Positions 58,189 through 61,075 of a stretch of 64,000 nt of DNA are shown here, in pieces (within the stretch, counting starts at the first letter, position 1; every line of letters begins with the position of its first letter). The position numbers and the translations under genes are program-made. Source of the DNA: an uncultured Elusimicrobia bacterium (lineage in GTDB: Bacteria > Elusimicrobiota > Elusimicrobia > 2-01-FULL-59-12); contig OY969767.1 of the NCBI GenBank assembly GCA_963702895.1, positions 32,001 to 96,000 of the forward strand. Reading direction: 5' to 3'. The notes beneath the pieces are model-generated. The model was not told the DNA's origin. It made no database searches and saw only the letters and a list, made by a program, of their open reading frames with translations.

Positions 58189-58297
58189 GTCATCCCGGTG
58201 AAAACCGGGATCCAGTCCATCGTCGTTGAACTGGACCCCGGGTCTCCACAAGTCCGGCGACCCGGCCCGCCGGGCGTCTGGAGGGCCGGCTTTCGCC
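58189..58297. repeat. Composite REP-like element, left half of the IS110 target
   Basis: GTCATCCCGGTGAAAACCGGGATCCA...TGGACCCCGGGTCTCCACAAG...CCGGCTTTCGCC; the palindrome resumes as GGGGTGACGGC at 59546. Confidence 0.9.
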
Positions 58298-58306
58298 TAT
58301 TAGACT

Positions 58307-58485
58307 TTTCTCGAGTCTTTGTAGACTCTAGAAGAAGACACCGACAAGAATGGAATAAGTCTAACTTTCGCCAAGGTGAAAACCATACCCCGGTAAAGAC
58401 CCCATTCTTTCGTGATCCAAAGCTAGATAGAAGTGATGTCATAAAAACCCTTAATAGGCAAAGCTCGCATCACGAATGTCGGCAC
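58307..58485 (+). ncRNA. Predicted IS110 bridge RNA
   Basis: 5' hairpin GAGTCT/AGACTC; closing stem CCGACA/TGTCGG; target loop with CTTTCGCC and ACCCCGG; donor loop with ATAGAAGT and TAATAGG. Confidence 0.85.
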
Positions 58486-58502
58486 TTACAAAAAGGAGCC
58501 TT

Positions 58503-59528
58503 ATGAACCCACCTCTCCATTACATAGGCGTTGATATCGCCGATCAAACCTTCAGCGCAACACATTACAGCTCAGCCGAACAAAAGTATTCCAAACATCA
58601 GACGCTCGCCAATACACCCGCCGGCTTTGAGGAATTCGAAGCCTGGTTTAAGAAACGCGGAGTCGATTCCACCAATACCGTGGTCTGCATGGAAGCCACC
58701 GGTGTTTATGCGGAGCAGCTCTGCTACTGGCTCTGTGCCAAAGGCTATCCGGTGTCGGTGGAGGCGCCGCATAAAACCAAACGCGCCTTTCACCCCCTGG
58801 GAGCCAAAAGCGACCCCATCGATAGCCGCCAGCTCGCCGAATATGCCTGGCGCTTTTTCGATCAACTCGCGTTCTGGAAACCCTCGGAAGCCTTGATCGA
58901 ACAAGTCCGTGTTCTTCTGACGACGCGCGAGCAGCTGACCGGCCAGATGACCGCCAATCAAAATGCCTTGTCGGCCATCAGCCGGAAAGTCGTTCGCACG
59001 ATCCTCGCCGAACAAAGCTTCCTGGACACCATCCGCCATCTCAAAGAACAGATCAAAAAAATCGATCAGGCCTTGGATCAACTGATCTCAAACCACCCCA
59101 CCATTGGCCCCATGGTGAGCTTGCTGCTCACCATCCCTGGGGTGGGCCGACTCTTGACGGCCCATTTGATGGTCATCAGCCAAGGCTTTACGCGATCCCT
59201 GGAACCCCGCCGCATCGCCTCGTATTTGGGCATGTGCCCACTCGAACACTCCAGCGGAACTTCCGTGCGCAAGAATGCAAGCTCTCGCGGGATCGGTCCG
59301 GACATCATCCGCAAGCTATTGCACCTGGCAGCCCGATCCCTTCGCACACATCATCAGCAGTTCAGGCACTACTTTGAAAGAAAAGTACAAGCCGGAAAAG
59401 CCAAACGCTTGGCGCTCAACAACATTGCCAACAAACTCTTGCGCATTATCTGTGCCGTACTGCGCACAAAGTCACCGTATCTTGCTGACTATAGGTCAGT
59501 CAATCCTCGGATCCTAAAAAATGCTTGA
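58503..59528 (+). CDS. IS110 DEDD (RuvC-like) recombinase/transposase
   Basis: AAGGAG RBS; YIGVDIA, CMEATGVY, KSDPIDS, IPGVG and EHSSG motifs. Confidence 0.96.
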   Translation: MNPPLHYIGVDIADQTFSATHYSSAEQKYSKHQTLANTPAGFEEFEAWFKKRGVDSTNTVVCMEATGVYAEQLCYWLCAKGYPVSVEAPHKTKRAFHPLGAKSDPIDSRQLAEYAWRFFDQLAFWKPSEALIEQVRVLLTTREQLTGQMTANQNALSAISRKVVRTILAEQSFLDTIRHLKEQIKKIDQALDQLISNHPTIGPMVSLLLTIPGVGRLLTAHLMVISQGFTRSLEPRRIASYLGMCPLEHSSGTSVRKNASSRGIGPDIIRKLLHLAARSLRTHHQQFRHYFERKVQAGKAKRLALNNIANKLLRIICAVLRTKSPYLADYRSVNPRILKNA

Positions 59529-59687
59529 CCGAGGTCATAGAAATCGGGGTGACGGCACAAAAAAGTGCATCGAGTTCAGACGATGAGGCAAAATGAACCG
59601 AAGATCTCCGGTTAGCTTCGGCCGCAGCAGGGGGCACTCATGAGGAGTCTCTTAGGCGCTGATTTTATCTACAAATAAAGTCAAAAT

Positions 59688-61075
59688 GAGTTCTTGTCAA
59701 ATGTACTGGAAATAGGGCAACGCCCCTTTCGTTGAATGTCTCTTAGGCCGCGACCTCCAGCTTCTCTCTTTCCACAAATAGTACTTCAACCAATTCCGGC
59801 TTTGCGATCGGCTTCCAGAACTGCGCTAAACGCTCAATGACCTTGTAGACGAATGCCACGCCTGTTCGGGATTTCTGGAACCGGCGCACGACTCGCGTCC
59901 GCAACCGCACTCCCGCGAAGACCGACTCAATCGGATTGCTCGTCTTCAAATGGACCCAGTGCTCCTTCGGAAAGTCGAAGTACCTCAGCAACGTGTCATG
60001 ATCCTTGCGCACACAAGCCGCAGCCTTCGGATAGCGAATTTCAAGATCCTCAGCCAACAAGGCCAACTGGTTCTCCGCGTCTTCGCGGCGCTCCGCCTGA
60101 TAGGCCACCCGCAGGCGATTGAGGACTTCATCCTGCTTAGCCTTCGGCACTTTATCCACGACGTTGCGCATCTTGTGCTTCCAACACCGTTGATCCTTCG
60201 CCGAGGGATACACCTCTGCCACCGCCTCCCAGAGCCCTCCGATCCCGTCGCCGATGACCAACAGCGGAGCAGGCATACCGCGCTCCGCGACCCCTCTCCA
60301 GATTTCCTTCCAGGAATCCCGGCTCTCCCGGTAGCCTTCCATCAGCGCGATCAGTTCCTTCTGGCCTTTCGCGTTGACGCCCACCAGAACCAGAAGCGCT
60401 GTGTTCTCTTTTTCCAGCCCCGCTTTTAAATACACGCCGTCTGCCCAGACATAGGCGTAACGCGTCTCCGATAGGTCCCGGCGACTGAACGTAGCCAGGT
60501 CCGACTGAAACTTCGCCGATAGACGCAGGATCGTGCTGGCTGATAAGGTGGCTCCATCCCCGATCAGTGCTCGCAACGCCGGCTCAAAGTCCCGACTCGA
60601 GAGTCCCTCCAGGTACAGCCGCCGGAATAACTCCTCGACCCCTTCCGTCCGCCGCTGGTAGGGCCGCAAGATGCTCGACTCAAACTCGCCTCCGTCCACC
60701 TGGGGCACCGATAGCTTCAGCCCCGCCCCCAACACCGTCACCTTCCGCTCCCGCGTTCCGTTCCGATAGCCTTTCTCCAGATTCTTCGCCCGTTCATAGC
60801 GCCGACGCTCTAAATACATCGTCACTTCTTCTTCCAGGGCCTCCACCAGCATCTTGCGCGCTCCTTCACGGGCCAGATAATCCACCATGCTCTCGCCTTT
60901 GTGCTGAGTCCCTTTCTCGTTTACAATGGTTTCCATAACGGCGTCTCCTTTTCGTTTATTGTCCGCTCGAACGGACAGGTTTGTGTGTTTCAACGAAAGG
61001 GTACGCCGTTTCTATTTCCTAAGGCAAATCCTTCCTTGCCTTAAAACCTATTTCCAGCACTTTTGATGGTAACTC
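59688..61075 (-). mobile_element. IS256-family element
   Basis: Imperfect 29-bp TIRs (GAGTTCTTGTCAAATGTACTGGAAATAGG vs GAGTTACCATCAAAAGTGCTGGAAATAGG) and 8-bp TSD GTCAAAAT at 59680-59687 and 61076-61083. Confidence 0.93.
59743..60936 (-). CDS. IS256 (Mutator-type) DDE transposase
   Basis: YRNG, YVWADGVY, IGDG, QRCWKHK and TSNPIES motifs. Likely start METIV at 60936. Confidence 0.95.
   Translation of the reverse strand: METIVNEKGTQHKGESMVDYLAREGARKMLVEALEEEVTMYLERRRYERAKNLEKGYRNGTRERKVTVLGAGLKLSVPQVDGGEFESSILRPYQRRTEGVEELFRRLYLEGLSSRDFEPALRALIGDGATLSASTILRLSAKFQSDLATFSRRDLSETRYAYVWADGVYLKAGLEKENTALLVLVGVNAKGQKELIALMEGYRESRDSWKEIWRGVAERGMPAPLLVIGDGIGGLWEAVAEVYPSAKDQRCWKHKMRNVVDKVPKAKQDEVLNRLRVAYQAERREDAENQLALLAEDLEIRYPKAAACVRKDHDTLLRYFDFPKEHWVHLKTSNPIESVFAGVRLRTRVVRRFQKSRTGVAFVYKVIERLAQFWKPIAKPELVEVLFVEREKLEVAA

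Follow-up and report, generated by a model that had tools for sequence, protein, structure and literature searches.

The window analyzed here, a 64,000-nt stretch of contig OY969767.1 from an uncultured Elusimicrobia bacterium, contains an autonomous IS110-group insertion sequence whose mode of action is very probably that of an IS621-like, RNA-guided bridge recombinase. Its anatomy, its site specificity, the covariation of its stems and guides, and the conservation of its catalytic residues are all evident from the DNA sequence. The initial annotation had proposed an IS110 element whose bridge RNA, of the IS621 type, targets a REP-like palindrome of the host, and the protein domains and catalytic residues, the sites of all five genomic copies, and the stem and guide covariation bear this out. 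Coordinates are those of the window, and the features described are on the + strand.

The element, its genomic sites and its recombinase

The element occupies 58298..59545 (1,248 bp), from a left end TATTAGAC... to a right end ...GTCATAGAAA-TC. We fixed these boundaries by comparison with 37 empty sites; the end had previously been put at 59556, and 59546-59556 is the right flank. The genome holds five copies of the element that are 100% identical (compared over 1,247 bp), each with an intact 341-aa frame, and from these copies we judge this IS110-family insertion sequence to be intact and recently active. All five are flanked by CCGGCTTTCGCC|...|CGGGGTGACG, with CTTTCGCC|GGGGT as the common site, exactly where the other copies had been predicted to sit (the full target string is CTTTCGCCGGGGT), and they occupy at least two different REP contexts.

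The empty site was correctly given as GGCTTTCGCCGGGGTGAC. The genome contains 36 exact occurrences of it (37 of the 13-mer, by exact-match count), and it is part of a hairpin resembling a REP, ACCCCGGC-TTTC-GCC|GGGGT, in which we found all five insertions and 37 empty copies, in agreement with the proposed host palindrome as target. The left target half with the target core, CTTTCG-CC (58290..58297), comprises the hairpin loop and the start of the 3' arm, and is identical in the five copies and to the left target guide at 58365-72. The right target half, GGGGT, belongs to the hairpin's 3' arm and has GAC after it; this stretch (59546..59553) is identical in 5/5 copies and in 36/37 empty sites. 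Altogether 42 natural target sites are readable in the genome, and CC-GGGGTGAC is common to 152 empty sites. Among 157 sites with an identical right half, the element occupies 5/41 of those whose left half matches the left target guide vs 0/116 of the others, and the 58 target sites with one mismatch that we found are all without an insertion.

The ends of the element are very unequal, with 205 nt of non-coding sequence at the left (58298-58502) vs 17 nt at the right (59529-59545). The left end begins with the right donor half TATTA (58298..58302), followed by GAC (58303-05), and the form (T/C)(A/G)TTAGAC is conserved among relatives. The right end (59534..59545, identical in the five copies) consists of a GTC inverted-repeat half, the left donor half ATAGAAA, and the donor core TC, so that a 3-bp subterminal inverted repeat, GTC (59534-36)...GAC (58303-05), brackets ATAGAAA-TC-TATTA, as it does in relatives.

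Elements of the IS1111 group, in which Siddiquee et al. reportedly described a 3' seekRNA in 2024, belong to the same protein superfamily and share the RNA-guided principle. Their RNA is located in a long right end according to PMC11208160, whereas here the right end is only 17 nt and the predicted RNA is in the left end. Where the IS1111 group has a long, guide-bearing right end and subterminal inverted repeats of 7-17 bp, the element has 17 nt and 3 bp.

The recombinase gene (58503..59528, 341 aa) is preceded by a Shine-Dalgarno sequence, AAGGAG, at 58493-98. The protein has the domain content of the IS110 family, PF01548 (78.7 bits, E 5.2e-22) and PF02371 (62 bits, E 7.4e-17), and matches NF033542, 'IS110 family RNA-guided transposase', scoring 193.5 bits where the cut-off is 140. 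It aligns with the IS621 chain 8wt6_A over residues 3-329 (phmmer, E 3.5e-28), pairing D11, E64, D104, D107, and S251-G252 with IS621 D11, E60, D102, D105, and S241-G242, for which the DEDD motif and catalytic serine roles are described in PMC11208158. All six residues are invariant in 34 relatives, and going by this alignment the catalytic residues of an IS621-type recombinase are conserved in the window protein.

In the contigs of reference genomes we found one distant locus only, with 30% identity, and a search of 40 related genomes returned 0 matches at E <= 1e-40.

The predicted bridge RNA and its guides

The left end folds with a minimum free energy (MFE) of -52.4 kcal/mol (z = -3.95). 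A 5' stem-loop, GAGUCU-UUGU-AGACUC (DNA GAGTCT/AGACTC, 58313..58328), is present in the MFE fold and begins about 7 nt past a -10-like hexamer. It is followed by a two-arm region (58341..58482) closed by a stem of CCGACA (58341-46) and TGTCGG (58477-82), and this closing stem covaries in relatives: the longest helix is 8.54 bp for cognate vs 5.79 bp for non-cognate pairs of strands (0/2000 permutations). The target-binding arm (58346..58409) has a basal stem AAGAAUGG/CCAUUCUU (DNA AAGAATGG at 58346-53 and CCATTCTT at 58402-09), an inner stem GUCU/AGAC (58359-62 and 58397-400), and a cap GGU-GAAA-ACC. The donor-binding arm (58410..58475) has a basal stem UCGUGAU/AUCACGA (DNA TCGTGAT at 58410-16, ATCACGA at 58469-75), an inner stem AGCU/AGCU (58421-24 and 58462-65), and a weak cap, in which the window keeps 2/3 consensus pairs of the helix.

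Much of this structure is supported by the relatives. RNAalifold, run on 52 sequences, recovers four helices and finds compensatory changes in 7/8 pairs of the basal stem of the target arm, while GUCU/AGAC is invariant in 52/52 sequences. AGCU/AGCU is 96.6% paired with 2/4 pairs covarying, and on the MAFFT alignment the donor arm's basal stem reaches 68% pairing, all 7 of its pairs covarying. Helices 1, 4, and 5 were counted on the plain MAFFT alignment, which lowers their paired percentages. The structure drawn in the initial annotation has 80.0% of cells paired, vs 71.3% in shuffles and 34-48% when it is slid, with both-side changes in 24/31 pairs. Its stem sequences are all present, and one detail of the drawing fails, as A58346 is used twice, in two helices. 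Overall the left end has the IS621-type fold of a 5' stem-loop and two arms with internal loops, with the caveat that the donor-loop cap is weak and that the single-sequence MFE has competing pairings, folding the guides into alternative hairpins and preferring GUGAUGU/GCAUCAC in the second arm. The Rfam covariance models were without a relevant family; their sole match, sX12 (21.8 bits, gathering 106, E 0.6), is on the flanking REP, outside the element.

Each internal loop carries two guides. The left target guide (LTG), CUUUCGCC (DNA CTTTCGCC, 58365..58372), has the same sense as the left target half plus core CC and matches the left flank at 8/8 positions. The right target guide (RTG), ACCCCGG (58387..58394, comprising the guide at 58387-93 and the handshake base U58394), is the reverse complement of CC-GGGGT at 7/7 positions. 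In the donor arm, the left donor guide (LDG), AUAGAAGU (DNA ATAGAAGT, 58427..58434), corresponds to ATAGAAA of the right end and the first T of the core; 7/8 positions are identical, and 8/8 match if one G:T wobble is counted. The right donor guide (RDG), UAAUAGG (58452..58459, the guide at 58452-58 plus the handshake base C58459), is the reverse complement of CC-TATTA, with 5/5 matches on the right donor half. The hairpin had been placed at 58313-28, the closing stem at 58341-46/58477-82, and the guides at 58365-72, 58387-93, 58427-34, and 58452-58; each sequence is indeed there. Both target-guide words occurred together in 0/100,000 shuffles of the 205-nt left end.

A layout of AAGUCUA-[guide]-cap-[guide]-AGACC is found in 61/80 metagenomic relatives with 41-59% protein identity, and the target-binding-loop pattern is absent from the other 19/80. 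Both flanks were available for 48 relatives, giving 49 loci with the window included, 45 of them non-redundant (again counting the window). At the 49 loci the RTG matches the 5-nt right flank at 5/5 positions in 41, 4/5 in six, 3/5 in one, and 2/5 in one. Over the 45 non-redundant loci, the mean right-target match is 4.78 for cognate vs 2.65 for non-cognate combinations, and the anchored match of the LTG is 5.80 nt vs 2.75 nt, with 0/10,000 permutations as good in either case. The right-target signal, which extends over 19 distinct right-half sequences, persists in the non-GCAAT subset (4.64 vs 1.80). The LTG does not match everywhere, the anchored match being 0 in four relatives (L048, L050, L074, L096) and 3 in three others (L049, L058, L069).

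The donor guides, whose positions in relatives were read from alignment columns, covary as well: the LDG is identical to the right end at 7.60/8 positions for cognate vs 6.25 for non-cognate combinations, and the RDG matches the right donor half at 4.36/5 vs 3.94 (0/5000 permutations for each). The covariation between guides and flanks that had been suggested as a check is found for the two target guides, and the two donor guides covary with the ends of the element. Donor position 7 is paired with the nucleotide 3' of the RTG in 48/50 cases, and target position 7 with the RDG handshake base in 43/45; among the matches listed, the window is alone in having a G at target position 7 and alone in having a C at the handshake position of the RNA. 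A point against the proposed reading comes from sequencing run X3, in which one contig has a near-identical left end, five consecutive changes in the LTG, and apparently the same flank, but it may be an assembly chimera.

The core dinucleotide and the junctions

The target core is CC (37 empty sites) and the right-end donor core is TC (5/5 copies). Every copy has CC at its left junction and TC at its right junction, with a single C common to both junctions. CC is read by the LTG, RTG, and RDG, while the LDG has a U for the first position of the core and a mismatch at the second core base. The initial annotation had described a CC core on which the guides overlap, which is right for the target and for these three guides, but not for the right end of the donor or for the first core U of the LDG. 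Donor and target therefore do not have an identical core read by all four guides; what they share is the second base, C.

All right ends that we located in relatives end in TC, partly by construction because the right-end search pattern required TC, and from these sequences TC appears to be the usual core in the subfamily. The CC/TC arrangement is also found in two independent relatives, L037 (with empty CC sites adjoining) and L105, and is therefore a stable state and not decay. A joint shift of the RTG and RDG, with CC read in place of TC, is confined to the window and L105, where the left junction is CC and the guides match it.

A possible reading of the fixed polarity, though less likely than not, is that it marks in the genome a transfer of the top strand alone, with copying of the rest, as in the copy-out/paste-in model that two recent preprints put forward. 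The core G residues of the RTG and RDG may then be dual readers, pairing with the target C and wobbling with the donor T, before and after exchange. Exchange of two strands over a 2-nt overlap should leave heteroduplexes and both polarities. In CazIS110-1 of Caloranaerobacter azorensis, excision and integration of the top strand only are reported (10.1101/2025.10.25.684509), and the junction pattern in the window, with the target core at the left and the donor core at the right, is what that model predicts; the term 'core' occurs 0 times in the available text of the preprint.

It is also possible, though again less likely than not, that the crossover is effectively one base, the common C, with the right-end T being part of the donor arm and the first C of CC part of the target arm. 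The junctions do duplicate a single C, the LDG pairs with the T and not with the next C, and the LTGs of several relatives pair with the first of the two positions only. However, the LTG, RTG, and RDG of the window span both positions, the joint shift of RTG and RDG is confined to the window and L105, and in IS621 the cuts flank a dinucleotide, with cleavage of the top strand after position 9 (PMC11208158; how we read the bottom-strand numbering there is our inference). The naturally mismatched core provides a simple marker for separating single-strand from double-strand models of IS110 transposition.

The proposed cycle and comparison with known systems

The ends carry motifs of the kind expected at a circle junction. 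A -35-like hexamer, TTGACC (59525..59530), lies at the right end and overlaps the stop codon, and the other promoter half expected there, the -10-like hexamer TAGACT (58301..58306), is found in 47/48 relatives with a left end. TTGAC(A/T/C/G) is present in 39/40 right ends of relatives with a TTGA word, the 40th having TTGATT, and on joined ends the spacing between TTGAC and TAGACT is 17 nt in 35/36 relatives measured and 18 nt in the window. Read as motifs on notionally joined ends, the two hexamers form a promoter-like sequence split over the junction of right and left end. A simple promoter scan found 0 sigma-70-like sites within the integrated copy. None of the sequencing runs recorded as RNA contains the element; run X20, whose RNA nature is a guess, has one 193-nt contig over 58384-58474.

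From these observations a cycle can be proposed. The excised circle would join the right end to the left end, bringing TTGACC and TAGACT to 18 nt apart, and an RNA of about 170 nt would start near 58313 and fold into the 5' hairpin and a pair of arms with one internal loop apiece. Of these loops, the first would read the target and the second the joined ends of the element, with AUAGAAGU pairing with ATAGAAA-T and UAAUAGG with (T/C)C-TATTA. The DEDD-plus-serine recombinase would exchange strands beside the 2-nt core, inserting the element into the 3' arm of the REP-like hairpin, and a top-strand exchange 3' of the core would be expected to leave the target core at the left junction and the donor core at the right. 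We infer the transcription, RNA binding, strand-exchange chemistry, and reprogrammability of the element by analogy with IS621.

We consider it very improbable that the five copies are inactive relics, or were spread by recombination between REPs, with a bridge RNA that is no longer functional. The window has a degenerate cap helix in its donor loop, no circle junction was seen in the contigs of 4 runs, and the donor core differs from the target core; against this, the copies are identical with intact frames in at least two REP contexts, all catalytic residues are retained, and L037 and L105 have the same arrangement of cores.

We give next to no credence to a reading of the site by the protein or the DNA hairpin alone, with the left end a promoter or leader and the flank matches coincidental: although the target is a hairpin, a target stem-loop adds to the specificity of ISPpu10 (10.64898/2026.03.19.712850), and the LTG matches fail in a few relatives, this idea is opposed by the guide-flank covariation over 19 distinct right-half sequences, by the shuffles, and by the occupancy of only LTG-matching sites among the 157 with the same right half. 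A GAC located 5 nt 3' of the core is conserved in 32/40 targets of relatives and lies outside all guides, so some protein reading is likely in addition to the guides. This count is for 40 rows ending in a GTCATAG-type motif and excludes the 14/54 in-gene false matches of a relaxed right-end pattern.

The bridge recombinase that we propose is close in design to IS621 of E. coli (Durrant et al. 2024, PMC11208160; Hiraizumi et al. 2024, PMC11208158; PDB 8wt6). As described for IS621, it has a two-domain DEDD and serine recombinase, a long left end and a short right end, and a left-end RNA of about 170-180 nt, here predicted, that comprises a 5' stem-loop and two arms containing internal loops. 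In either loop, the 5' side has the same sense as the left half-site and the 3' side complements the right half-site, with an overlap of both on the core, and the handshake positions and a REP target are also shared, as would be a promoter split over the circle junction, to judge from the end motifs. It differs from IS621 in having a distant protein, a target of CTTTCG-CC-GGGGT vs ATCAGGC-CT-AC, an RTG of 7 nt vs 4 nt, and cores of TC in the donor and CC in the target vs CT in both, and in being known from sequence alone. ISPpu10 of Pseudomonas putida likewise belongs to the IS110 group and has a bridge RNA by prediction (PMC11208160, Extended Data Fig. 10), and its insertions are reported to be all in one intergenic repeat, whose 5' extension is a GC-rich stem-loop (10.64898/2026.03.19.712850); its host, target, and guides are different.

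The claim that this is a distinct recombinase system was overrated, as Durrant et al. predicted bridge RNAs in 85.7% of the IS110-group elements in ISfinder and reported guide covariation across thousands of elements (PMC11208160), and the protein family is already named "RNA-guided transposase" in NCBIfam. The element is a clean further example of the bridge-RNA mechanism that was described in 2024; it does not amount to a system of a new kind and reveals no new mechanism. What it offers, from an uncultured lineage, is a natural bridge-RNA system that is well resolved, in which four guides, two handshakes, promoter motifs, and 42 target sites can be read in the sequence. Given that its subfamily includes dozens of relatives with at least 20 distinct right-half targets, these elements make up a usable set of orthologues for working out guide rules, such as the 7-nt RTG and the probably protein-read GAC.

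Element anatomy and target sites

The element is 1,248 bp long (window 58298-59545; the initial annotation had run it on to 59556) and consists of a 205-nt non-coding left end (58298-58502, + strand), a single gene, which encodes a recombinase of 341 aa (58503-59528, +) and is preceded by the Shine-Dalgarno sequence AAGGAG (58493-98, +), and a 17-nt right end (59529-59545, +). The recombinase contains the domains PF01548 (DEDD_Tnp_IS110, E 5.2e-22) and PF02371 (Transposase_20, E 7.4e-17), and scores 193.5 bits against the NCBIfam model NF033542, "IS110 family RNA-guided transposase" (cut-off 140). Of the solved structures, it is closest to IS621 transposase 8wt6_A (E 3.5e-28 over residues 3-329) and to 9t56_A, the transposase of ISCro4. 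In the alignment to 8wt6_A, D11, E64, D104, D107 and S251-G252 correspond to IS621 D11, E60, D102, D105 and S241-G242, which the structure paper (PMC11208158) assigns to the DEDD motif and to the catalytic serine with its conserved glycine, and all six residues are unchanged across 34 aligned relatives.

The database search returned 1,948 relatives of the recombinase (top identities 87%, 85% and 65%), most of them on element-sized contigs. Reference genomes yielded next to none. A metagenome scan yielded 80 relative loci with 41-59% identity, and in 61 of them AAGUCUA-[variable]-hairpin-[variable]-AGACC lies 5' of the gene. The left ends of the relatives start with (T/C)(A/G)TTAGAC and the right ends close with CTTGAC...GTCATAGnnnTC.

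The host genome, a single contig of 2.72 Mb, carries five copies that are 100% identical end to end. The expectation that other copies would share the target site held: all five have CCGGCTTTCGCC as their left flank and CGGGGTGACG as their right flank. The empty 13-mer CTTTCGCCGGGGT occurs a further 37 times in this genome, and the 18-mer empty site of the initial annotation 36 times. The site lies within the hairpin ACCCCGGC-TTTC-GCCGGGGT, with insertion in the 3' arm at GCC|GGGGT; this hairpin is set in several longer repeat families, so "REP-like palindrome" is a fair description of the target. Genome-wide, 152 empty sites share CC-GGGGTGAC and vary in their left halves (GGCTTTCG in 36, GGCTTCCG in 18, ACAATCCG in 16, plus others). 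Together these sites form one family of palindromic repeats that are related to each other, and the element uses a single class, GGCTTTCG, where 5/41 sites are occupied versus 0/116 for other left halves. All 58 one-mismatch neighbours of the target in the host genome are empty, as are its three TC-core versions.

Three of the five occupied sites, and many of the empty sites, contain a nested hairpin unit of ~45 nt (gtctccaca...ggaggg; window 58230-58289 and genome copies) within the palindrome's 5' arm, so that the arm ACCCCGG is displaced ~50 nt from the insertion point. A weak match to the Rfam family sX12, a Xanthomonas sRNA, covers the REP hairpins on the element's left side (58215-58294; 21.8 bits against a gathering score of 106, E 0.6), and is most likely a chance likeness between GC-rich hairpins. 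A Mutator/IS256-family transposase gene (59743-60993, - strand; 416 aa, PF00872, E 2.1e-73) follows ~200 nt beyond the element's right end, and this stretch is a mobile-DNA cluster.

Predicted bridge RNA and its guides

All of the sequence words quoted in the initial annotation are at the positions it assigned them. The two target words are not a chance occurrence, as none of 100,000 shuffles of the left end had both. A single-sequence fold of the left end is stable (-52.4 kcal/mol, z = -3.95) and includes the 5' hairpin, AAGAAUGG/CCAUUCUU and GUCU/AGAC, but it places the guides in local hairpins and favours a competing pairing in arm 2, and because of these deviations the structure was tested on relatives. 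From a MAFFT alignment of 52 non-identical RNA regions, RNAalifold, blind to the proposed model, found arm 1's basal stem of 8 bp (compensatory changes in 7 pairs), the invariant GUCU/AGAC, AGCU/AGCU and the donor-loop cap, of which the window keeps just 2/3 consensus pairs. When the proposed structure was laid on the same alignment, 80.0% of cells were paired versus 71.3% in shuffles (0/500 reached the observed value), pairing fell to 34-48% when one strand was slid, and 24/31 pairs had changes on both sides. The closing stem was only 39% paired because the alignment is poor at its ends; tested directly, its longest helix averaged 8.54 bp in cognate versus 5.79 bp in non-cognate combinations (0/2000 permutations). 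A minor slip of the initial annotation is that it counted A58346 in two helices.

The predicted target arm carries a left and a right target guide (LTG, 58365-72; RTG, 58387-93), and the donor arm a left and a right donor guide (LDG, 58427-34; RDG, 58452-58). This layout is that described by Durrant et al., with both guides of a loop overlapping the core (PMC11208160). We compared guides with flanks at 49 loci with both junctions located, namely the window and 48 relatives. The RTG, 7 nt located 3 nt ahead of AGACC, predicts the five non-core bases of the right junction at 5/5 in 41 loci, 4/5 in six, 3/5 in one and 2/5 in one. In the 45 non-redundant loci, window included, there are at least 20 distinct right halves (19 besides GCAAT), and the covariation between guides and flanks that had been predicted is evident: the right target match is 4.78/5 for cognate versus 2.65 for non-cognate pairs, and the anchored LTG match 5.80 versus 2.75 nt, with 0/10,000 permutations for each. 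The anchored LTG match is 0 in L048, L050, L074 and L096 and 3 in L049, L058 and L069; the left boundary of L096 was probably miscalled. L048, L049 and L050 are one relative element in three contexts, where the RTG agrees with the right flank at 5/5 but the LTG region agrees with the left flanks over 0-3 nt only, a pattern resembling the 'half-match' insertions of the preprint 10.64898/2026.08.31.748434.

The donor guides match the element's own ends at 7.60/8 cognate versus 6.25 non-cognate (LDG) and 4.36/5 versus 3.94 (RDG), both with 0/5000 permutations. The base 3' of the RTG pairs with donor position 7 in 48/50 loci and the base 3' of the RDG with target position 7 in 43/45, and these are the positions named handshake guides in PMC11208158. 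Among the loci listed, the window alone has G at target position 7 and alone has C in the RNA. In 32 of the 40 relatives whose right end was properly located, the target has a GAC 5 nt 3' of the core (59551-59553 in the window). It mirrors the donor side, where GAC comes after the right half of 5 nt (TATTA-GAC); as it lies outside every guide, the protein may read GAC in both substrates.

One contig from metagenome run X3 has a near-identical left end with five consecutive substitutions at 58364-68, in the LTG or the base just before it, and over the adjoining 19 nt its flank looks the same as the window's. It could be a reprogrammed variant, a natural guide swap, misjoined to this flank by the assembler, since the link spans more than one 31-mer, or it could be a real mismatch between guide and flank.

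The core and a putative junction promoter

The CC core of the initial annotation holds for the target, the left junction and three guides, and fails at the right end. Empty sites read CTTTCG-CC-GGGGT, while all five copies have CC-TATTAG at the left junction and AGAAA-TC-GGGGT at the right. The window's LTG, RTG and RDG read CC; its LDG reads U, followed by a mismatch. The usual core of the subfamily is TC (left junction TC in 40/45, CC in 5/45), and all located right ends close in TC, although the search pattern demanded it. L105, the sole other element with RTG and RDG reading CC, likewise combines a left CC with a right TC, as does L037, which has empty CC sites in a tandem array just downstream. 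This array (L037:1327-1476) consists of 25-nt units (GCGGTCACCCCCATCGTCATTCCCC) directly 3' of the right end, and every unit junction restores L037's empty target with its CC core.

In IS621 the top strand is cut 3' of the core (PMC11208158), and with such a cut the left half retains, on the top strand, the target core and the right half the donor core, which is exactly the pattern seen here. Two-strand exchange across a 2-nt overlap would give heteroduplexes and, absent biased repair, both polarities. The fixed CC-left/TC-right polarity agrees with the top-strand-only transfer reported in two preprints, 10.1101/2025.10.25.684509 and 10.64898/2026.08.31.748434. A 1-nt overlap would also explain it, as would biased repair, so we kept top-strand-only transfer out of the verdict: the original observation is confirmed, and its interpretation, with the core amended, is supported.

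Joining the ends would bring a -35-like TTGACC in the right end (59525-30, +), overlapping the stop codon, to 18 nt from a -10-like TAGACT in the left end (58301-06, +). In the relatives the right-end hexamer is TTGACA in 29, TTGACT in seven, TTGACC in two and TTGACG in one; TAGACT is present in 47/48, and the spacing is 17 nt in 35/36 measured. Read as a motif, this pair of hexamers corresponds to IS621's split promoter (PMC11208160), and it would start an RNA near the 5' hairpin at 58313. The integrated copy has zero promoter-like sites, no sequencing run on record as RNA contains the element, and no circle junction was seen in the contigs of four runs.

Place among the bridge recombinases

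In ISfinder, 85.7% of the IS110-group elements have a bridge RNA predicted by Durrant et al., who also showed covariation across 5,511 target and 2,201 donor pairs (PMC11208160). That the family targets REPs is long established (references cited in PMC11208160). Among the titles and abstracts listed in a literature search with other wording, none describes a naturally mismatched donor/target core. Judged from its sequence, the element is a member of the IS110-group bridge recombinases by protein, layout, RNA fold, guide logic and target type, and the only defining feature of the group from which it departs is the identical core in donor and target. The "RNA-guided" label for this recombinase family is already part of NCBI's own model, NF033542.
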